From NCBI GenBank assembly GCA_027460535.1, contig JAPZAR010000020.1, positions 41,640 to 73,639 on the forward strand: DNA of 32,000 nucleotides, in the 5' to 3' direction. Positions 19,043 through 31,442 of this stretch are shown piece by piece (within the stretch, counting starts at the first letter, position 1; each line of letters begins with the position of its first letter). A program made the translations under genes and the position numbers. Under the pieces are notes generated by a model, which made no database searches, had not been told where the DNA came from, and saw only the letters and a program-made list of their open reading frames with translations. The DNA is from Candidatus Methanoperedens sp. GTDB taxonomy: Archaea > Halobacteriota > Methanosarcinia > Methanosarcinales > Methanoperedenaceae.

Positions 19043-20419
19043 TCAGAACACTGATACGGATTTGATGTTCATGAATTCATAGAGCCCGAATTTAGAAAGC
19101 TCCCGTCCAATACCGCTTTTCTTAATCCCTCCAAAAGGCAGGCGTGGATCGGATTTAACAAGGGAATTTATGACTACAACTCCTGATTCAAGTTCCCTTG
19201 ACAAATGAATACCTTTATTAGTGTCCTTTGTCCATAAACTTGCACCAAGACCCAGCTCTGAATCATTAGCAATCCTTATCGCTTCTGCTTCATCTTTAAC
19301 TGGAATTACTGGTGCTACCGGGGCAAATGTTTCCTCATTTATAACTTTCATTTCTTTTGTTACATCAGTAAGGATAACAGGGGAATAAAAATACCCATTT
19401 CCAGGAAGTCTTCCTCCTCCGAGTAACACTTTTGCACCCTTTGATAACGAATCCTTCACCTGATCCTCAATGATCTGGATCTGTTCTTTTCTTACAAGGG
19501 GACCCATGTCAGTATCTGGATTCATTGGATCTCCGACCTTGAGTTTCGAAGCAATTTCCACGAACTTTGAGGTGAACTCTTCAGCAATACTTTGTATAAC
19601 GATGAACCGTTTCGCAGCGATACAGCTCTGACCAGCATCCTGGAACCTGCTCAAAACCGCGATCTTTGCAGCCTGTTCAATATCAGCATCTTCAAGTACG
19701 ATGAAAGGATCACTTCCACCAAGTTCGAGAACGAACTTTTTCATGTTCTGTCCGCAAACTTCTGCCACCTTTTCTCCTGCAGAAACGCTCCCTGTCAATG
19801 ATACTGCATCTATCTCTTTTCTCTCGATAAGCGACGATGCTGTTGGCCCATCAATAAGCAGCGTCTGGAAAACCCCTTCGGGAAATCCAGCATCTGAAAA
19901 TACTTTTTCAATTTCAAGTGCACATAATGGGACGTAGCTTGAATGTTTAAGAAGAACAACATTTCCCCCAGAAAGAGCAGGAGCAGCAAAACGCAGTGCC
20001 TGCCAGAAAGGAAAGTTCCATGGCATGATGCACAGTATTGTCCCCCGCGGTTCAAATGAGACATACGCTTTCTTCGCGTCCGTTTCCACAATCTGGGGTT
20101 CTAAAAATTTCTTTGCATTCTCTGCAAAATACTCAAGAGCCCAGGCACATTTTTCAATCTCTGGTATTGATTCTCTTATGGGTTTACCCATTTCCGTAGT
20201 GATGATTTCGCCAAGTTCCACCTTTCTTCTTCGTAATACTTTTGCGGCGTTAATGAGATGTTTTCCTCTCTCAGATACGTCAAGCCTTTTCCAGTCCGAA
20301 AATGCATCTTTTGATCTCTTAATCGATTCATTTATCCTTTCTTGCGAATAAAACTCAAATTCCCTATTTACATCCCCGGTAGCAGGATTAATAGATACCA
20401 TCTTTTTCATGTATTTCAT
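19043..20419 (-). CDS. NAD(P)-dependent aldehyde dehydrogenase, succinate-semialdehyde-dehydrogenase-like
   Basis: 458 aa with the short-N-terminus SSADH-like form (SINPATGD). Contains ELGGSDPFIV and the catalytic GQSCIAAKRF. Confidence 0.9.
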   Translation of the reverse strand: MKYMKKMVSINPATGDVNREFEFYSQERINESIKRSKDAFSDWKRLDVSERGKHLINAAKVLRRRKVELGEIITTEMGKPIRESIPEIEKCAWALEYFAENAKKFLEPQIVETDAKKAYVSFEPRGTILCIMPWNFPFWQALRFAAPALSGGNVVLLKHSSYVPLCALEIEKVFSDAGFPEGVFQTLLIDGPTASSLIERKEIDAVSLTGSVSAGEKVAEVCGQNMKKFVLELGGSDPFIVLEDADIEQAAKIAVLSRFQDAGQSCIAAKRFIVIQSIAEEFTSKFVEIASKLKVGDPMNPDTDMGPLVRKEQIQIIEDQVKDSLSKGAKVLLGGGRLPGNGYFYSPVILTDVTKEMKVINEETFAPVAPVIPVKDEAEAIRIANDSELGLGASLWTKDTNKGIHLSRELESGVVVINSLVKSDPRLPFGGIKKSGIGRELSKFGLYEFMNIKSVSVF

Positions 20420-20616
20420 CTCCTTTTGTTATCTAACATATTCCTGAGGAACGTATGCAAGATTCCTCCATTTCGATAAAAATCTAGTTCAACAGGTGCG
20501 TCAAGTCTTGCTATAACGTTGAAGATCTTGTCTTTTCCATCAACTTTTGCAACTACCCGCAGTTTTCCTCCCGGCTTTAGACTACCGATGCCAGAAATGT
20601 CAGAGATCTTTTCCAC
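20416..20616 (-). pseudogene. orphan fragment corresponding to the last ~60 aa of aconitate hydratase (swivel-domain C-terminus)
   Basis: LKPGGKLRVVAKVDGKDKIFNVIARLDAPVELDFYRNGGILHTFLRNML matches the conserved AcnA C-terminal tail (..R.DT.VE..Y...GGIL..VLR.L). Only 66 aa are present. It has an ATGA overlap with the downstream ALDH. Confidence 0.6.
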
Positions 20617-20800
20617 CCCATGTGATGGAATACTGATTATAGTCTCCCATTATTGCAGAAGCAGCAGCGCGTTTAATCTCATCAGGGACAGGAAAATCTG
20701 GAAATCCCTGGGCAAGGTTGACGGCATGACGTGTTACGGCAAGCCGTGACATATCACGAATTACCGATTCGGTAATATGTTCTAATCTGTGAGATAACAT
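20600..20800 (-). pseudogene. N-terminal ~65-aa fragment of a class I/II (fold-type I) aminotransferase
   Basis: From the ATG at 20800: MLSHRLEHITESVIRDMSRLAVTRHAVNLAQGFPDFPVPDEIKRAAASAIMGDYNQYSITWG, the typical aminotransferase N-terminus. The frame then terminates at 20600, so there is no PLP-lysine region. Confidence 0.6.
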
Positions 20801-20802
20801 GG

Positions 20803-21501
20803 TCAATACCCTGGAAAATTTTCTTGATGGATCATATCGTCTTGAATTTCCAATGTTTTGAGAATTTCTACAGAACTTGTTACAAGGGACGACGGACCGC
20901 AAACATAAAAAACACATTCTTTATAATCTGGTATCTCTTCTAAGACCATCTGGACGTCTATATGTCCACGCCTTCCTTTCCATTTCTCATCTGGCTGGGA
21001 CAGTGTATGGATTACCCTGAGGTTTTGATTTAGCTTTTCCAGGCGATCCAGTTCTTCCTTGAAAACTATGCTTTCTTGATTCCTGTTTCCATATAAAAAA
21101 GTAATACGGGATTTCATTTCATTATCCGTGCAATATTTAATCATGCTCCTAAGTGGCGTTATCCCGATACCCCCCGTTATCATCCCTACTCTGGGATATT
21201 CACCGTTGAACGCAAAATTCCCGTATGGCCCATCAAGGTATGCCCAATCCCCTATTTTGAGCCTGTCAAGAGCAACTGAGAACTCATGGTCTGTAATCTT
21301 TTTTGTGAATTCAATAAACTCCTTTTCCGTTGGACTGCTTGAGATCGTAAAATGCTTAGTGATTTTATTACCCTCGCTGAGAATTGTTACGAATAAAAAT
21401 TGACCGGGATCGTAATCAAAACCTTGTGGTCTTCTAAACCTGAAGCTCTTTACATCGTGTGTTCGTTTGATTATCTCGGAGACACTGGTTTCTAATTTCA
21501 T
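20803..21501 (-). CDS. FNR-like FAD/NAD(P)-binding oxidoreductase
   Basis: The FAD-binding barrel has the FNR-type FAD-binding motif as KHFTISS (in GNKITKHFTISSSP). The NAD-binding motif is GGIGITPLRSM. Size is 232 aa. Confidence 0.85.
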   Translation of the reverse strand: MKLETSVSEIIKRTHDVKSFRFRRPQGFDYDPGQFLFVTILSEGNKITKHFTISSSPTEKEFIEFTKKITDHEFSVALDRLKIGDWAYLDGPYGNFAFNGEYPRVGMITGGIGITPLRSMIKYCTDNEMKSRITFLYGNRNQESIVFKEELDRLEKLNQNLRVIHTLSQPDEKWKGRRGHIDVQMVLEEIPDYKECVFYVCGPSSLVTSSVEILKTLEIQDDMIHQENFPGY

Positions 21502-21504
21502 AAA

Positions 21505-21837
21505 TCAACAAACCTCTTTTCTACTGCTATCGAACTCGGTCGCCTCCTTCGTTAAAAAGTACCCCATCACCGTTCTGATGCTGACAGTAGCGCCAAGAAA
21601 GATAATCTCTTCCTGGCTGGGAGCAACAATTGTCTTCAAAATATCACTGGCAACGAGAAAGTCCAATCCAAATACGATCTTATGTGTGAAATCTCTGCGA
21701 ATATCATGAAAACTGAGTTCTATTGACCTTTTCAATTCCAATTGCAAAGTTTTGATTATTGTTAAAATCCCTCCGTAAAGTATAATTGCAGCTCCAATAT
21801 ATGCAAAAAGTATTGACGATATATCTATGATTTCCAT
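21505..21837 (-). CDS. small integral membrane protein (DUF1622-like)
   Basis: Two or three TM helices and the conserved-looking LDFLVASDILKTIV...LGATVSIRTVMGYFL. Its stop lies 3 nt before the FNR-like start. Confidence 0.7.
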   Translation of the reverse strand: MEIIDISSILFAYIGAAIILYGGILTIIKTLQLELKRSIELSFHDIRRDFTHKIVFGLDFLVASDILKTIVAPSQEEIIFLGATVSIRTVMGYFLTKEATEFDSSRKEVC

Positions 21838-21882
21838 ATTGTATCACCTCTCACCATTATTCTTTCATAGTTATTACATGTC

Positions 21883-23076
21883 TTAATGTCTTTTTGCACC
21901 AGTGAGACTTCGCATGCTTTCCTGGTTCTCCTGAAATGAAAGATAAATTTCGCGTTTTGCCAACTCCCCAAAAAACAATTCGGGATTTATACACAGTTCA
22001 GGAGGCATGACACCACGCTTTTCAATTTTTTTTTCGGTAATCATTTGTGCGATTATTGACGGCGGCACGCCGGTATCCCAGGTACCTGCTGGTATATTCC
22101 ACCTGGAGTTTGATCTTGATTCACAGTATACTACCACATTCCTTGTCTTTCGGTTGCTCTTTCCCCTCAATTCCACTCTCAGGAACTCTACATCTTTTAT
22201 CCTGTCTTTTTCCGGAATAAACCTGTTCAACAAACTGACGGTAAAGTCAAGGGGAACAACGTCAAAGTTCTTATATTTCACAGGAGTTGTTGACGCAAAA
22301 CCGGTGTCTATGAGGAACTTAATTCTTTCAACAAACTCTTTCGGGAAACCACCTTTAAAGCTGCAATTCTTGATACCTTTATCTTTGAACGATGAAGGGA
22401 AAGTAGCGACTTCTGAATGGAGCGTATAAAAACATGTAGCACTGTTCACAGGTGAAGGAAACTCGATTTCCTCTTCCCCGGTAAGGGGCTTCACGAATCT
22501 TATTTTTCCGCCAGAGAATATCGCCGGTTCCATTGAAAATTCATCAAATATCGTACGCATCGAGTATGGAACCACAAATGGCATACTGTACTTCGTATAA
22601 TCCTTGTCAGCGAAATACACACGTATGGAGTCTATGGCATCAAGGAATCCCGAACCGTAGGCAGCCATTATGTTTGTAATTCCTGGCGTTGCACCACATC
22701 CCACAACAGCAAGAATATTTTTCTTTTTGAAACTTGAATCCAATTTCAATTGCTTTTTGGTCATGTGAAAAAGACCGCCAAGGTCAACATAATTCACTCC
22801 TGCGGAAAGCGCCGCTTCCATTACCTGTAAATTGGTGGTGTATTGGGTTGCATTGATTACAACATCAGAGCCTTTCAGGAGTTCTATCATTTTTTCCACT
22901 TCATCGGCATCTGCTTTTGCATGCATGATATTTTTACTGTTGAAGGATTCTGCAAACATTTTTGCTTTTTCTTCATTCCTGCCTGCAACGACAATCTTTC
23001 CTTTGAATGTTTCCAATAGATCAATTACCGTTATCCTCCCCATTTCCCCGTATCCGCCCAGGACGATAATTTTCAT
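21883..23076 (-). CDS. saccharopine dehydrogenase-family NAD(P)-dependent oxidoreductase
   Basis: Rossmann N-terminus MKIIVLGGYGEMGR, VINATQY...VNYVDLGG and GCGATPGITN, typical of Sacchrp_dh-type enzymes. It has a 4-nt overlap with the upstream aminotransferase. Confidence 0.85.
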   Translation of the reverse strand: MKIIVLGGYGEMGRITVIDLLETFKGKIVVAGRNEEKAKMFAESFNSKNIMHAKADADEVEKMIELLKGSDVVINATQYTTNLQVMEAALSAGVNYVDLGGLFHMTKKQLKLDSSFKKKNILAVVGCGATPGITNIMAAYGSGFLDAIDSIRVYFADKDYTKYSMPFVVPYSMRTIFDEFSMEPAIFSGGKIRFVKPLTGEEEIEFPSPVNSATCFYTLHSEVATFPSSFKDKGIKNCSFKGGFPKEFVERIKFLIDTGFASTTPVKYKNFDVVPLDFTVSLLNRFIPEKDRIKDVEFLRVELRGKSNRKTRNVVVYCESRSNSRWNIPAGTWDTGVPPSIIAQMITEKKIEKRGVMPPELCINPELFFGELAKREIYLSFQENQESMRSLTGAKRH

Positions 23077-24401
23077 TTCATTGCACCAATAGATTCACTC
23101 AATGCCTCCAGTGTTTTGTTTAAATCATCTTTAGAATGGGAATATGAGGTGTATATCGCTTCCTCGCCATCTTCGTCGATCATAATACCTCTCTTTAAGA
23201 GTTCATATTGGACCTTTGTAAACTGTTTCATATCACAATGAGCGAGGTCTCGATAATTTATTATTTTCTCCTTCTCTGTAAAGAGATACTGGAACATTGT
23301 TGGATAACCATGGACAACATGAGGGATTTTATGGTCGTCAAGGATTTCATCGATGCCTTTCATCATGCTTTTCCCATAATTTTCAAGATGAGCCCATACG
23401 CTATCCTTTTCAAGTTCTTCTAAAGTAGCCTTGCTGGCAGTAAGCGAAACTGGATTTGCAGAATATGTACCGCCATGCATGACTTTCCCGGGTCCTATCA
23501 GCTCCATAATATCTTTTCTTCCCCCAAAAGCTGCTATTGGATATCCATTTCCCAGTGATTTTGCAAACGTCGAAAGATCTGGATATACCCCAAAGAGCTC
23601 TTGAGCTCCACCTTTCCCAAGCCTGAATCCGGTCTTTACTTCATCGAAAATTAGGATAATATCATATTCTTCGCACAGTTCTTTTAGATATTTCAGGTAG
23701 CCGTTTGCCGGAGGGATGGCAGAGCAATTTCCCATAACTGGTTCTGTAATTATTGCTGCAACATCCTTGTAATTCTCTTTCACAATATATTCAATTTCTT
23801 CTGGTTTATTCCACTCGCAAACCAGCGTATATTGAGACATACCCTTTGAAATACCCCATGAAGCAGGAATTGCTTCTCTTGGGGATTGATATCCGGGTTT
23901 CGTGGAAAACGCAACAGCATCATGCCATCCGTGATAATGCCCCTCGAACTTTATTATCTTGTCCTTTTTTGTGAATGCCTTGGCGACCCGTATTGCTCCC
24001 ATCGTTGCCTCTGTTCCAGAGCCCGCAAACCTGAGCATATCAATTGATGGCACAAAATCTATTACTGTTTTTGCCACGTCGATCATAAGCTCATTATCAG
24101 AAGCATATACCAGACCCTTCTCATCTGCTTTATGCACAGCTGTATGTATTTTTCTATAACTGTGACCAAGTATGACCGGGCCATAACCCAACCGGTAATC
24201 TACATATTCATTTCCATCTACATCCCAGATATGAGACCCGAAAGCTTTTTCAATGAAAATGCTGCAGGGTCCGAACTCATGACAGACACTTTTCATGAGC
24301 CTTGCGTTTGATCCCACTCCTCCTGGGATGATTTTCGAGGCTTCCGTATACATCGCCATTGATTTATCCAACTTAAATTGTTTTGTCATATTATTCTTCA
24401 T
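23073..24401 (-). CDS. class-III (HemL/GSA-aminomutase-like) PLP aminotransferase
   Basis: Contains IIPGGVGSNARL, GSGTEATMGAIRVARAF-like (AGSGTEATMGAIRVAKAF), DEVKTGFRLG and the PLP-Lys region FAKSLGNGYPI. The track start at 24455 would overlap the upstream ALDH, whereas the ATG at 24401 lies 8 nt after its stop. Confidence 0.9.
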   Translation of the reverse strand: MKNNMTKQFKLDKSMAMYTEASKIIPGGVGSNARLMKSVCHEFGPCSIFIEKAFGSHIWDVDGNEYVDYRLGYGPVILGHSYRKIHTAVHKADEKGLVYASDNELMIDVAKTVIDFVPSIDMLRFAGSGTEATMGAIRVAKAFTKKDKIIKFEGHYHGWHDAVAFSTKPGYQSPREAIPASWGISKGMSQYTLVCEWNKPEEIEYIVKENYKDVAAIITEPVMGNCSAIPPANGYLKYLKELCEEYDIILIFDEVKTGFRLGKGGAQELFGVYPDLSTFAKSLGNGYPIAAFGGRKDIMELIGPGKVMHGGTYSANPVSLTASKATLEELEKDSVWAHLENYGKSMMKGIDEILDDHKIPHVVHGYPTMFQYLFTEKEKIINYRDLAHCDMKQFTKVQYELLKRGIMIDEDGEEAIYTSYSHSKDDLNKTLEALSESIGAMK

Positions 24402-24411
24402 ACGAATTCCT

Positions 24412-25905
24412 TTATTTTTCTCCAAAAACGGTATAATACCATGGCTTTCTGACAAGACCGGTCTGGTCGATATAAACGTGCTTAATTATTGTGTATTCCT
24501 CAAGTGAAAATATTGACAGGTCTTTCCCCGTTCCGCTCTGTTTAAAGCCACCATGCGGCATTTCAGAAGTAAGCAACCCGTGCTCGTTTATCCAGACAGT
24601 TCCAAATTTCAGTTTGCTGGCAATCCTGATAAGGTTTGTAATATCTTTTCCCCAGACTGAAGATGCCAATCCATAGACAACATCATTCGCTTTGCTAATT
24701 ACCTCATCAATGCTTGAAAACCTGGAAACAGATAATACAGGGCCGAAAATTTCTTCCTGGCAGATTTTCATTTTCTGTTCTACATTTGTAAAAATGGTAG
24801 GTTCAAAGAAATAGCCTTTCTTCAGGTTCTCAGGTCTTTTACCCCCATAAACAAGATTGGCTCCGCCTTCTATTCCGGATTTCACATACGATTCAATCCT
24901 TTCCCTCTGTCGTCCTGATATCAAAGGACCCATGTCGATTTTTTCCCCAAATGGATCCCCTATCCTTATTTTACTCGTTTTCTTTACCAATAGATCGATA
25001 AATGCATCATGAATACTTTCATGAACGTAAATTCTTGTTGCAGCCGTACAATCCTGTCCGCTGTTCAGGAAAGCTCCAGCCACTGCTCCTTCTGTTGCTG
25101 CATCGATGTCTGCATCACCCATAACGATAAACGGTGCTTTGCCCCCGAGTTCCAGATGTACTTTTTTCAGGTTACCAGATGCCATTTGCATGATCTTCTT
25201 CCCTGTAGAAGTATCACCGGTCAAAGAGATCATATCCACCCCGGGACTCGTTGCAAGTTCTTCTCCGATCTTATCTCCCGGACCTGTTATAACATTGAGA
25301 ACGCCTTTTGGTAGTCCTACCTTATCCGCCAATTTAGCAAACTCAAGAAGTGTCAGCGGAGTATAGGTCGCAGGTTTGAGTATTATCGTATTCCCGGCTG
25401 CCAGCGCAGGCGCAAGTTTCCAGATTGCTATGTATAAGGGATAATTCCAGGGAACCACTCCTACAACGACTCCAATGGGCTCTCTTCTGATTATGCTCAT
25501 GCCCAATCCAGTATACTCTGAAGCAGCACTGCCCTCCAGCATCCGGGCAGCGCCGGCGAAAAACCTGAGATTATCGATTATAAAAGGAAAATCAGAATCT
25601 TTGCTGTATTTTATTGTCTTGCCTGTATTCATTGATTCCAACCTGGCAAGGTTTTCAACATTCGCCTCAACAATATCTGCCAGCTTCCAGAGAATCTGGG
25701 AACGCTCCGCTGGAGTTTTATTAGACCAGATACCAGAGTCAAAAGCATCTCTTGCTGCATCTATTGCAGTTTTTGCATCTTCTTTTGTGCCAAGCGGGAC
25801 CCGGGCGATTTTTTCCTCGGTTGCAGGATTTATAACATCAAAAAATTCTCCGGATATTGAATCAACCCACTTCCCACCTATAAACATTTTGTATTTTTCT
25901 ATCAT
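24412..25905 (-). CDS. NAD-dependent aldehyde dehydrogenase, aminobutyraldehyde/betaine-aldehyde (PatD-like) type
   Basis: Contains KMFIGGKWVDS, ELGGKAPFIV and the catalytic GQDCTAATRIYV, a motif I associate with gamma-aminobutyraldehyde dehydrogenases. Confidence 0.88.
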   Translation of the reverse strand: MIEKYKMFIGGKWVDSISGEFFDVINPATEEKIARVPLGTKEDAKTAIDAARDAFDSGIWSNKTPAERSQILWKLADIVEANVENLARLESMNTGKTIKYSKDSDFPFIIDNLRFFAGAARMLEGSAASEYTGLGMSIIRREPIGVVVGVVPWNYPLYIAIWKLAPALAAGNTIILKPATYTPLTLLEFAKLADKVGLPKGVLNVITGPGDKIGEELATSPGVDMISLTGDTSTGKKIMQMASGNLKKVHLELGGKAPFIVMGDADIDAATEGAVAGAFLNSGQDCTAATRIYVHESIHDAFIDLLVKKTSKIRIGDPFGEKIDMGPLISGRQRERIESYVKSGIEGGANLVYGGKRPENLKKGYFFEPTIFTNVEQKMKICQEEIFGPVLSVSRFSSIDEVISKANDVVYGLASSVWGKDITNLIRIASKLKFGTVWINEHGLLTSEMPHGGFKQSGTGKDLSIFSLEEYTIIKHVYIDQTGLVRKPWYYTVFGEK

Positions 25906-28517: not shown

Positions 28518-29159
28518 ATGGAAAAGCGGTACTATGTGGTGCTGTGCGACGTGATATCCTCACGCCGGATAAAAGATAAGCGGACTTTTCAAAAAAAATT
28601 AGAAACAACATGTACCATGGTAAACGCTACCTATAGCGGGAGCATACATGCAGGTTTCAAGATCCTGAAAGGGATTGATGAAATTGAAGGCGTTCTCTCA
28701 AATATATCGAATATCTACGAAATAATAGCCATGATACTGGAGCAACTCTATCCGGATTCGATGCGTTTCGTACTGGTGCAGGATTCTGTAGATATAGGGG
28801 TTGAGAGCCGTGATACGGCAAAAATGGATGGGCCTGCCTTCCACAAGGCCTCGGATTTGATGGAAGATCTCAAAAAGTCAAAACTGATGTTTGATATGTC
28901 CACGGGTTATGAATTAACCGATACGCTGATAGCAGGGGAGATTAACCTGATTCTATTATTGAAAAAAAATTGGTCGGCAAAACAGCACATGATAGTGAGG
29001 GAATACAGGAACACGGGTAACCAGAATGAGGTTGCAAAGGCCCTCGGAATAACGCAGCAGGCCGTCTCCAAAGTTCTCACTCGTTCGATGTGGAAGGAAA
29101 TCGGAGGCATCGAGGAAAGATTAATTCATGTCCTGCACCAAATGACCGTAAGGACGTGA
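28518..29159 (+). CDS. SatD-family-like protein with C-terminal helix-turn-helix
   Basis: The N-terminus YYVVLCDVISSRRIKDK resembles the SatD family start as I recall it. The C-terminal NQNEVAKALGITQQAVSKVLTRS is a sigma-70 region 4 / LuxR-like HTH. Confidence 0.65.
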   Translation: MEKRYYVVLCDVISSRRIKDKRTFQKKLETTCTMVNATYSGSIHAGFKILKGIDEIEGVLSNISNIYEIIAMILEQLYPDSMRFVLVQDSVDIGVESRDTAKMDGPAFHKASDLMEDLKKSKLMFDMSTGYELTDTLIAGEINLILLLKKNWSAKQHMIVREYRNTGNQNEVAKALGITQQAVSKVLTRSMWKEIGGIEERLIHVLHQMTVRT

Positions 29160-29165
29160 TGCCGG

Positions 29166-29534
29166 ATGCTCATGGATTTGAATATCATTCAAGTTGCCAT
29201 CCTTGCAGGGGGATATTTTGTGCTGCTTGCAACAAGCGGAGCAGTTGTGAATTACATTATTTCAAAGATATCGCAGGAACCACTAAGGCAAAAAATAAGT
29301 AAAGAGGTGCGTGATACTGGTTTTGTGATCGGGAAATGCGAAAACCTGCTTATACTTACTTTTATGATCCTGGAAGCATATACAGCCCTGGCGCTGGTGT
29401 TCGCTGCAAAAGCCATAGTGCGGCATGAGGATATGAGAAAGAACTCTTTATTTTTCCTGGCGGGGACCATGATCAATGTCACGTACTCGATAATGATGGG
29501 ACTTGTAGTAAGCCTCCTTATTGGCAAAGTCTAG
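29166..29534 (+). CDS. small integral membrane protein (about 4 TM), likely co-transcribed with the SatD-like gene
   Basis: 122 aa with several hydrophobic helices. It starts 6 nt after the upstream stop. Confidence 0.6.
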   Translation: MLMDLNIIQVAILAGGYFVLLATSGAVVNYIISKISQEPLRQKISKEVRDTGFVIGKCENLLILTFMILEAYTALALVFAAKAIVRHEDMRKNSLFFLAGTMINVTYSIMMGLVVSLLIGKV

Positions 29535-29913: not shown

Positions 29914-30117
29914 ATGGAAATTTCAAATGAGGATATAAAAATAGCAGAACAGATATCAGCGGGCAAGAATGAATTCGAAGACCTGGGGTTAGAAATCTGG
30001 AGAAAATTGCTGGGAAATACGGAACCGGACATCCCGACAAAAGGATGGGACAGGATTTCGATTGACGATGCTCAGGAAGTTGACTGGAATTGTTTATTAA
30101 CCGCCGCGGCTATTTAG
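29914..30117 (+). CDS. hypothetical acidic 67-aa protein
   Basis: An ORF lying 18 nt upstream of the next gene on the same strand. No family is recognised. Confidence 0.4.
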   Translation: MEISNEDIKIAEQISAGKNEFEDLGLEIWRKLLGNTEPDIPTKGWDRISIDDAQEVDWNCLLTAAAI

Positions 30118-30135
30118 GTATTTGAGGTAAGAATA

Positions 30136-30432
30136 ATGGAATCAGTCTACTTCTATGAAGATAAGGTGAGCAAAGATGTTGCACAAGCACTGGAAGATGA
30201 TTTTTTTAAGCGCATCGGTTATACAGTAAGGGAGTGCAAGCTTCTGGGGTCTGAACGCAAGGGTTATTTCCTGTATATCAAAGCCAATTCAGAAGACATC
30301 GATCGCGCAGAGGAAAGGTTGGAAGGCTGCGGGCTTGAAAAGCTCGTCGGGGAGGAAAAGAAAATAGTCACCGCCGCTTTTATCGCGGAAGAAGAAAATG
30401 CCGCAAGTGGCATGGGAATGATATTCGGTTAA
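30136..30432 (+). CDS. 98-aa protein with ribosomal-stalk (aP1/L12)-like acidic C-terminal tail
   Basis: A strong SD (GAGGT) lies 8-9 nt before the ATG. The C-terminus AEEENAASGMGMIFG is compared with the archaeal stalk tail consensus (acidic run + GLGALFG). Its stop codon overlaps the convergent gene's stop (TTAA at 30429-30432). Confidence 0.7.
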   Translation: MESVYFYEDKVSKDVAQALEDDFFKRIGYTVRECKLLGSERKGYFLYIKANSEDIDRAEERLEGCGLEKLVGEEKKIVTAAFIAEEENAASGMGMIFG

Positions 30433-31442
30433 ACTATTTTGCTGATTATCGCGTCCACCATCTCGCTTGTCTTTGAGCTTCCTCCCAGGTCGTAGGTCAG
30501 GTATTTTCCTTCAGCTATTACTTTTTCCGTGGCCTCGAAGATAGCCATGGAATTCTTGCCCTCCCCGAGATAATCGAGCAGCCACGCGCCTGCAAGCACA
30601 GTAGCCACAGGATTTACTTTATCCAGCCCCGCATATTTTGGCGCCGAGCCATGGGCAGGTTCGAACATGGCGTAGCTATCGCCGATATTTGCCGAGTATA
30701 TCAGACCTATGCTTCCCACGAGGGCAGAGCATTCCTCGCTCAGGATATCCATGAAGAGATTTGTGGATAAGAGGATTTTCTGGTTGAATATCTGCGGGTT
30801 CTTTATCAACTGCTGGGCGATATTATCGATATGGTATTCCTCCACTTCAATGGAATAATTTTCACCCACCTTTTTTACCTCCTCCAGGAATGTACCATCT
30901 GTCTGCTTCAGAATATTGCTCTTATGGATCGCCACCACGGCTTTCCATCCCCTGCGCACAGCTTCTTCAAATGCGTATCGTGCGACGTTCTGGCATGCAG
31001 GCTTCGTAATTTTCCTTATGGAAATAAAGACGTCATCCGTCAGCTGGACTTCCTTTGCAAAGTAGAACCCTTCAGTACCTTCTCTCACGCACACGAAATC
31101 AACATCTCCAAGAGGTTTCTGGGTATTAGGGAAAGATTTTATCGGCCTGACATTGGCATACAGGTTGAATTTCTGGCGAATAGACACTGCCACGCTCTTC
31201 GGGGAACCAGCGCCACCGGGCGTCGTAGTAGGACCTTTGAAGCCCGCATCAGTGCTTGCCAGAATATCCCAGGTCTCTTGAGGGATGAGTGAATCTCCGC
31301 CGTGCTTCCCCCACCACTCAGCTCCTGCTTCGCACATAATGAATTCAACATTGGTGCCGACAGCTTCCATTACACGGAGCATGCTGTTCACAAGCTCGGG
31401 TCCTACGCCGTCGCCTTTTATGACTGCTGCTTTCTTGCTCAT
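30429..31442 (-). CDS. isocitrate/isopropylmalate dehydrogenase family enzyme (isocitrate- or homoisocitrate-DH-like)
   Basis: Contains AVIKGDGVGPEL, KGPTTTP, LYANVRP, REGTEG-like (VREGTEGFY) and FEPAHGSAPKYAG. Size is 337 aa. Confidence 0.9.
   Translation of the reverse strand: MSKKAAVIKGDGVGPELVNSMLRVMEAVGTNVEFIMCEAGAEWWGKHGGDSLIPQETWDILASTDAGFKGPTTTPGGAGSPKSVAVSIRQKFNLYANVRPIKSFPNTQKPLGDVDFVCVREGTEGFYFAKEVQLTDDVFISIRKITKPACQNVARYAFEEAVRRGWKAVVAIHKSNILKQTDGTFLEEVKKVGENYSIEVEEYHIDNIAQQLIKNPQIFNQKILLSTNLFMDILSEECSALVGSIGLIYSANIGDSYAMFEPAHGSAPKYAGLDKVNPVATVLAGAWLLDYLGEGKNSMAIFEATEKVIAEGKYLTYDLGGSSKTSEMVDAIISKIV

Follow-up and report, generated by a model that had tools for sequence, protein, structure and literature searches.

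A family of small archaeal proteins combining a predicted ferredoxin-like body with a C-terminal tail like that of the ribosomal stalk

The gene and its C-terminal tail

The 32,000-nucleotide window analysed in this study (Candidatus Methanoperedens sp., assembly GCA_027460535.1, contig JAPZAR010000020.1, positions 41,640 to 73,639 of the forward strand) carries at 30136-30432 on the plus strand a single-copy gene for an acidic protein of 98 amino acids (isoelectric point 4.7). The open reading frame (ORF) starts with ATG, and in the ORF reading of the window the protein ends in AFIAEEENAASGMGMIFG-stop, its C-terminal letters being given as EEENAASGMGMIFG, then stop. As the preliminary description had stated, an acidic run followed by G-M-G-M-I-F-G stands at the extreme C-terminus. 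To our knowledge, such a stalk tail has been thought to be restricted to the ribosomal proteins aP0 and aP1. The protein comprises a ferredoxin-like domain predicted by modelling, fold matches and conservation (residues 1-70, 30136-30345, plus strand) with the conserved residues D22, R26, R32, L37 and G38; a long amphipathic helix (residues 72-91, 30349-30408, plus strand) with the acidic run E85-E87 and A89; and the stalk-type tail with its stop codon (residues 92-98, 30409-30432, plus strand), which is equivalent to G102-G108 of Pyrococcus horikoshii aP1. Database entries for close homologues in Ca. Methanoperedens call them hypothetical proteins.

This reading frame is a real gene. Among 12 Methanoperedens genes, purifying selection was strong, with a ratio of nonsynonymous to synonymous substitution (dN/dS) of about 0.05, and in codons 85-98 the proportions of nonsynonymous and synonymous differences were 0.013 (pN) and 0.74 (pS, saturated). 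A TATA-like box, TTTATTAA, lies at 30093-30100 on the plus strand, 35 nt upstream of the ATG, and a TTTAT[TA]AA-type element recurs at a comparable distance in most of 20 Methanoperedens loci with differing upstream genes; the box is a probable promoter of the gene's own. The Shine-Dalgarno-like GAGGT at 30124-30128 (plus strand, 7 nt upstream of the ATG) had been called strong in the preliminary description; GAGG or a similar element is conserved in most relatives, and its strength is only moderate. The recurrence of both signals in most relatives, despite different upstream genes, suggests that the gene is separately transcribed. A scan with a bacterial-type sigma-70 promoter model, which is ill suited to archaea, found nothing above chance.

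The host genome (2.9 Mb, 99.8% complete) carries canonical aP0 and aP1 genes side by side on contig C13, the window belonging to contig C20. The two proteins end in GLGSLFG and GLGALFG, so that the aP0 tail is retained in the host, and the slot after uL1-uL10 (aP0) is filled by the canonical aP1 and not by the 98-residue gene. No L1, L10 or L12 gene was found near the latter, in keeping with the earlier remark that it lies far from any ribosomal protein operon, and the objection that it could simply be the only aP1 of the genome is thereby answered. Among 9,580 ORFs of at least 50 amino acids in this genome, the strict C-terminal motif G-Φ-G-x-Φ-F-G (Φ, hydrophobic) was observed in three proteins, namely aP0, aP1 and the 98-residue protein, against an expectation of 0.016. 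A looser form of the pattern is expected about twice by chance in the same genome, and the motif in a single genome is therefore moderate evidence only; the main support for the tail comes from its conservation among homologues.

Tail conservation had been proposed earlier as a check, and no part of the family proved more strongly conserved than the tail. Across 90 distant homologues, the three top-ranking columns were G92 (99%), F97 (98%) and G94 (91%). Moreover, searches made with residues 1-70 only, which removes selection for the tail, gave 62 loci, 60 of which end in the strict motif, nearly always 27-36 residues after the domain. Among a further 20, mostly weak, matches, 17 had the tail, one was cut by a contig end and two had a degenerate internal tail followed by an extension. 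A contig search with a narrower alignment selects for the tail and was excluded from judging its conservation.

The likeness to the stalk is confined to this end of the protein. The profile match to aP1 lay in the tail region (E 1.3e-5), and the likeness to aP1 and aP0 was restricted to the last 19-24 columns, the match to aP1 spanning about 13 residues that include E86 and the terminal position. Residues G92, M93, I96 and F97 pair with G102, L103, L106 and F107 of aP1, two of these positions being conservatively changed; throughout the family the four places are kept as G, hydrophobic, hydrophobic and F. Residue E86 corresponds to E96 of aP1, each set having glutamate there in 90% of its sequences. 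For the aP1 of P. horikoshii, L103, L106 and F107 are required for aEF1A (PMC4267659) and for ABCE1 (PMC6125642), and together with G102 for aEF2, where the G102S exchange abolishes binding (PMC5887453). The terminal G108 is not needed for ABCE1 activation (PMC6125642), which fits the occurrence of G, D or S at the last position of the family.

Predicted fold and distribution of the family

The body of the protein was modelled with AlphaFold2. Residues 1-70, modelled alone, gave a ferredoxin-like fold with a mean predicted local distance difference test score (pLDDT) of 94.7. The monomer model, based on a 95-row alignment, added a confident helix at 72-92, with low pLDDT at 92-96; the tail was unplaced and undocked on its own domain, which is what a partner-binding end would show. 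The helix and the near-fixed spacing from domain to stop indicate that there is no flexible Ala/Pro/Glu hinge. In a helical-wheel plot, the face formed by V78, F82, E85 and A89 continues through G92, M93 and I96. This face probably packs on the domain, and a tail-bound partner would accordingly lie beside the domain.

The closest fold match was the C-terminal domain of 2cve (YigZ/IMPACT-type; Z 8.9, root mean square deviation 1.7, 61 aligned residues), followed by LepA, SBDS domain III and KH domains (Z 7.0-7.8); the whole following group, which includes PII proteins, had Z 6-7.8. The domain shares the topology of the ferredoxin-like domains of the EF-G/LepA domain III-V type, with LepA (3cb4) at Z 7.4 and SBDS domain III (1p9q) at Z 7.0. 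Together with 2cve, these align at root mean square deviations of 1.7-2.3 over 61-65 residues with 8-15% identity, and none of them has the tail. KH, PII and designed proteins score about equally, which indicates a common fold only; no match was clear of background in the fold searches, and aEF1B was absent among the matches listed. PII-like proteins reached a Foldseek E of 0.04 or worse, with a template modelling (TM) score of about 0.45-0.5 and no Pfam match.

Sequence comparison of the body likewise led to no named family. The preliminary description had noted that the N-terminal part does not resemble aP1, which holds at the profile level: hhalign of residues 1-70 against 32 aP1 sequences found no similarity (probability 0.7%). 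The same was true of a profile comparison with aEF1B (PF00736, probability 0.4%), the canonical form of which is present on contig C15 of the host genome. Searches of Pfam, NCBIfam and PDB sequences gave no significant match, and none of the 95 members matches Pfam among the families listed. Neither the protein nor its homologues matched PF00428, PF02482 (HPF/RaiA) or CBS, and the 98-residue protein differs from the latter two in topology. Its neighbours in the ESM Atlas were unnamed archaeal clusters, and the named clusters gave no significant match.

A search of 1.84 billion representatives returned 105 matches, and a profile search returned 1,400 clusters at 90% identity. With residues 1-70 as the query, matches were found, nearly always in single copy, in 79 of 81 Micrarchaeota genomes, 77 of 151 Thermoplasmatota genomes and, within an additional DPANN phylum (probably Nanobdellota, unconfirmed), two of 101 genomes; Aenigmatarchaeota also carry the family. 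In Halobacteriota, 42 of 301 genomes matched, in a near all-or-none manner by family, the carriers being Methanoperedenaceae, Methanothrix (7 of 8), Methanocellaceae (15 of 15) and five smaller families. No match was found in the 37 genomes of a large sister family (by inference Methanosarcinaceae), nor in most other Halobacteriota families searched. Cultured hosts include Methanocella conradii (Mtc_2243), M. arvoryzae, M. paludicola, Methanothrix thermoacetophila, Picrophilus, Ferroplasma and Aciduliprofundum boonei (Aboo_0914). No relative was found on viral contigs with a single-protein query.

In a tree of 99 columns with weak deep forks, the Thermoplasmatota, the Micrarchaeota and 16 of the 17 Halobacteriota sequences each fell on a supported branch, a pattern in keeping with ancient vertical descent and recurrent loss. 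The phylum-sorted tree and the near-universal single copy in the reduced Micrarchaeota fit a function in the core of the cell. The family is unannotated and unnamed. A literature search that included the locus tags of cultured members, with most subscription journals outside its reach, turned up no publication dealing with this family or with carriers of the tail outside the ribosome.

Two Thermoplasmatota homologues (loci L320 in genome G475 and L322 in genome G440) are longer, at about 150-165 amino acids, and have a degenerate internal tail with a basic, Trp-rich C-terminal extension; the one in G475 is a second copy of the family.

Possible roles of the tail

The reading favoured here, on the likeness of the tail and at a probability of about 0.55, is that the 98-residue protein would be an off-stalk ligand occupying the stalk groove of a translation factor. 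It would be a small housekeeping protein, separately transcribed, whose non-ribosomal scaffold presents a docking peptide of the stalk type. The free tail would fold upon binding, with M93, I96 and F97 entering the hydrophobic stalk-binding groove of the factor, and the rigidly attached domain would supply extra contacts by which the factor might be held or shielded. Our guess at the client is aEF2, with aEF1A, aIF5B and ABCE1 as other candidates, because G102 is indispensable for the binding of aP1 to aEF2 and G92 is the most invariant residue of the family. The off-stalk reading is also in line with the purifying selection on the tail codons, with the distribution expected of a core-cell gene and, in Thermoplasmatota, with the co-occurrence of the family and a lost aP0 tail. 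A fuller and more tentative proposal, to which we would give somewhat less than even odds, is that of a free regulator whose copy of the stalk peptide would capture, away from the ribosome, one translation GTPase or ABCE1; it would be an ancient, undescribed archaeal protein, present in almost all Micrarchaeota and retained by slow-growing methanogens, methanotrophs and Thermoplasmatota. A complex prediction with the full-length aEF2 of the host scored 0.02 against a mark of 0.32, and because the controls did not fold it carries no weight either way.

Several observations weigh against an off-stalk ligand. The family tail is a variant, G-[MF]-G-x-I-F-G in place of G-L-G-A-L-F-G: 81% of members have M or F at position 93, where 97% of aP1 sequences have L; at position 96, 88% have I, as against L in 100% of aP1; and G94 is stricter than in aP1, yet some members lose it or end in D. 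This fixed signature suggests a distinct variant under its own selection rather than a recent copy, and it can mean a narrower range of clients or a different receptor, the latter being made possible by the systematic differences from aP1. In addition, the tail is degenerate and internal in two homologues of the domain, and the ferredoxin-like fold is so common that it gives no function. The genomic context in Methanoperedens is unstable, even the commonest neighbours recurring in no more than about 7 of 26 loci, and no neighbour conserved across phyla and no conserved operon were found among loci from several phyla. Furthermore, searches detected no copy of the gene in most of the Halobacteriota families covered or in 99 of the 101 genomes from the additional DPANN phylum, though the same translation factors are present in all of them.

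An alternative we consider unlikely is an accessory stalk, in which the domain would bind the large subunit or the stalk base and add a factor-recruiting tail in place of that of aP0. The aP0 tail was missing in all eight Micrarchaeota genomes checked, and an intact one was absent in 51 of 69 family-bearing Thermoplasmatota genomes as opposed to 5 of 70 family-negative ones, although these counts reflect few events, because kin are not independent. In one family-bearing genome (G501, locus L242), a decaying aP0 tail has two stop codons within the recognisable motif. The conserved R26 and R32 could contact RNA, and KH domains are among the fold matches. In Halobacteriota, however, 13 family-bearing genomes, the host included, keep the aP0 tail and 28 are without it, and both the tail and the family gene are present in Methanothrix and in Halobacteriota family f7. 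At least seven Halobacteriota families lack both, and 38 of 45 family-negative genomes (a sample from low-scoring rows) are without the tail; a pattern search of 10 genomes lacking both found no substitute tail protein above chance. The link to loss of the aP0 tail thus holds in part, being strong in Thermoplasmatota and failing in Halobacteriota. Moreover, deletion of the aP0 tail lowers ABCE1 activation in vitro only slightly (PMC6125642), which makes a replacement unnecessary, and an acidic protein without a hinge is ill matched to such a role. Strict compensation for loss of the aP0 tail as a general rule, which had looked convincing in a hand-picked sample, failed in the wider Halobacteriota sample and was rejected.

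Other features of the canonical stalk genes were also observed. The C-terminal tail of aP0 is missing in Methanocella, several other Halobacteriota families, Micrarchaeota and part of the Thermoplasmatota. In three Thermoplasmatota genomes, a single in-frame stop lies in the aP0 tail region, TGA in G390 (locus L232) and G474 and TAA in G522, and in G390 an intact-looking tail follows the stop; these stops could be recent loss, read-through or recoding. In Halobacteriota family f13, the aP0 match stops near model position 252, suggesting a shorter spine. In genome G207, aP1 is not adjacent to aP0, and in three Halobacteriota genomes (G217, G227 and G237; loci L197, L210 and L213) the aP1 match lies inside frames of 388-426 amino acids that also match aP0 and may be aP0-aP1 fusions. 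Two aP1-like genes per genome were seen in G537 (loci L226 and L244) and G241.

It is likewise doubtful that the tail serves self-assembly or a partner outside translation, with the likeness to the stalk arising by convergence on an acidic helix, Gly-hydrophobic-Gly and a C-terminal Phe. In its favour are positions 93 and 96, where the family departs from aP1 in a fixed manner, the stricter G94, the continuity of the tail with the helix face that would pack on the domain and the want of a conserved translation operon; PII-like and other oligomeric ferredoxin folds top the Foldseek list, though without significance. The match over about 13 residues, which takes in E86, the terminal position and all four known determinants, argues against convergence, as do the restriction of the strict motif in the host to this protein, aP0 and aP1 and the undocked tail of the model. 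The suggestion that the protein is the aP1 of the genome, or a diverged aP1 paralogue binding the aP0 spine, as its comparable length and tail might imply, is very improbable and was rejected, given the canonical aP1 after aP0 on contig C13 (of 60 genomes tested, family-bearing or not, 59 had an aP1), the profile results above and an alpha/beta fold where aP1 has an all-helical dimerisation domain. The preliminary description had left the choice between a stalk-tail mimic and a divergent stalk paralogue; the mimic is plausible, and the paralogue falls on fold, profile and hinge.

With aP1 (L12/P1, PF00428), known from P. horikoshii complexes with aEF1A (PMC4267659, PMC6791870), aEF2 (PMC5887453) and ABCE1 (PMC6125642), the protein shares an acidic helix followed by the C-terminal G-Φ-G-x-Φ-F-G, the matched positions G102, 103, 106, F107 and E96, and a similar length and acidity. 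In contrast, aP1 has a helical dimerisation domain, an Ala/Pro/Glu hinge and the tail G-L-G-A-L-F, whereas the family has a ferredoxin-like body, no hinge and G-[MF]-G-x-I-F; unlike aP1, its gene is patchy across archaea and lies outside the L1-L10-L12 operon. To judge from its sequence, the protein may act like the C-terminus of aP1 while being no member of the aP1 family, of whose features only the motif was found. For aP0 (uL10), the last 9 residues were the best BLAST match in a genome pair test, and the profile match covered the last 24 columns. The aP0 tail and the family are both dispensable in many lineages; however, the protein has neither the rRNA-binding L10 domain nor the spine helices of aP0, and its presence is only partly complementary to loss of the aP0 tail.

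HibA/AHA, Dri, aRDF and the PurH-aEF2 complex MRDF are likewise lineage-patchy accessory factors on the translation machinery, and MRDF sequesters aEF2 in a methanogen (PMC13324472, PMC12605026). The 98-residue protein is without the CBS or HPF domain of silencing factors, and those factors bind active sites of the ribosome, none of them being reported with a stalk-type tail. No full-length HibA match was found in the host genome; PF02482 is too insensitive for archaeal HibA. In one Micrarchaeota genome (L107:2711-3874), the family gene is preceded at about 1 kb by a 387-amino-acid CBS-module protein of HibA-like length, the C-terminal part of which gave no match with a three-sequence HPF profile.

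Genomic surroundings and significance

The gene is met by a convergent neighbour of the isocitrate/isopropylmalate dehydrogenase family (30429-31442, minus strand), which is outside the system; the two stop codons overlap, and a gene of this family adjoins in only about 7 of 26 Methanoperedens loci. Lineage-specific neighbours elsewhere include S8e, Nep1, an S4-domain methyltransferase, a diphthine-synthase-like gene, Elp3, PheS and an L18e-L13-S9-S10 cluster. These lend the off-stalk reading weak support, because small archaeal genomes are dense in translation genes and other family members sit among unrelated genes.

Directly upstream, a 67-codon ORF (29914-30117, plus strand) overlaps the TATA-like box with its 3' end. 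It had no Pfam or NCBIfam match, tblastn over the fetched loci matched its own locus only, and it is probably a non-gene or a remnant. Between pheS and the stalk-tail gene, at 28518-29534 on the plus strand, a SatD-family protein with a C-terminal helix-turn-helix is followed by a 122-amino-acid membrane protein, a pair that looks like a local insertion. A cluster at 19043-25905 on the minus strand encodes two aldehyde dehydrogenases, a class III aminotransferase, a saccharopine-dehydrogenase-like protein and an FAD/NAD oxidoreductase, and it resembles an amine or polyamine pathway, which is surprising for an anaerobic methanotroph.

Archaeal translation-silencing factors are still being discovered and are missing from some lineages (PMC13324472). 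That Micrarchaeota genomes of 0.6-1.5 Mb retain the family almost without exception identifies it as a core gene still lacking annotation. The proposal of an off-stalk ligand is directly testable, since cultured species carry members and the aP1 tail already has established peptide-binding and hybrid-ribosome assays. If it is true, the protein would be a cellular molecular mimic of the P-stalk tail, of which we found no earlier description, and a conserved non-ribosomal carrier of this tail would add a layer of control over archaeal elongation or recycling factors.
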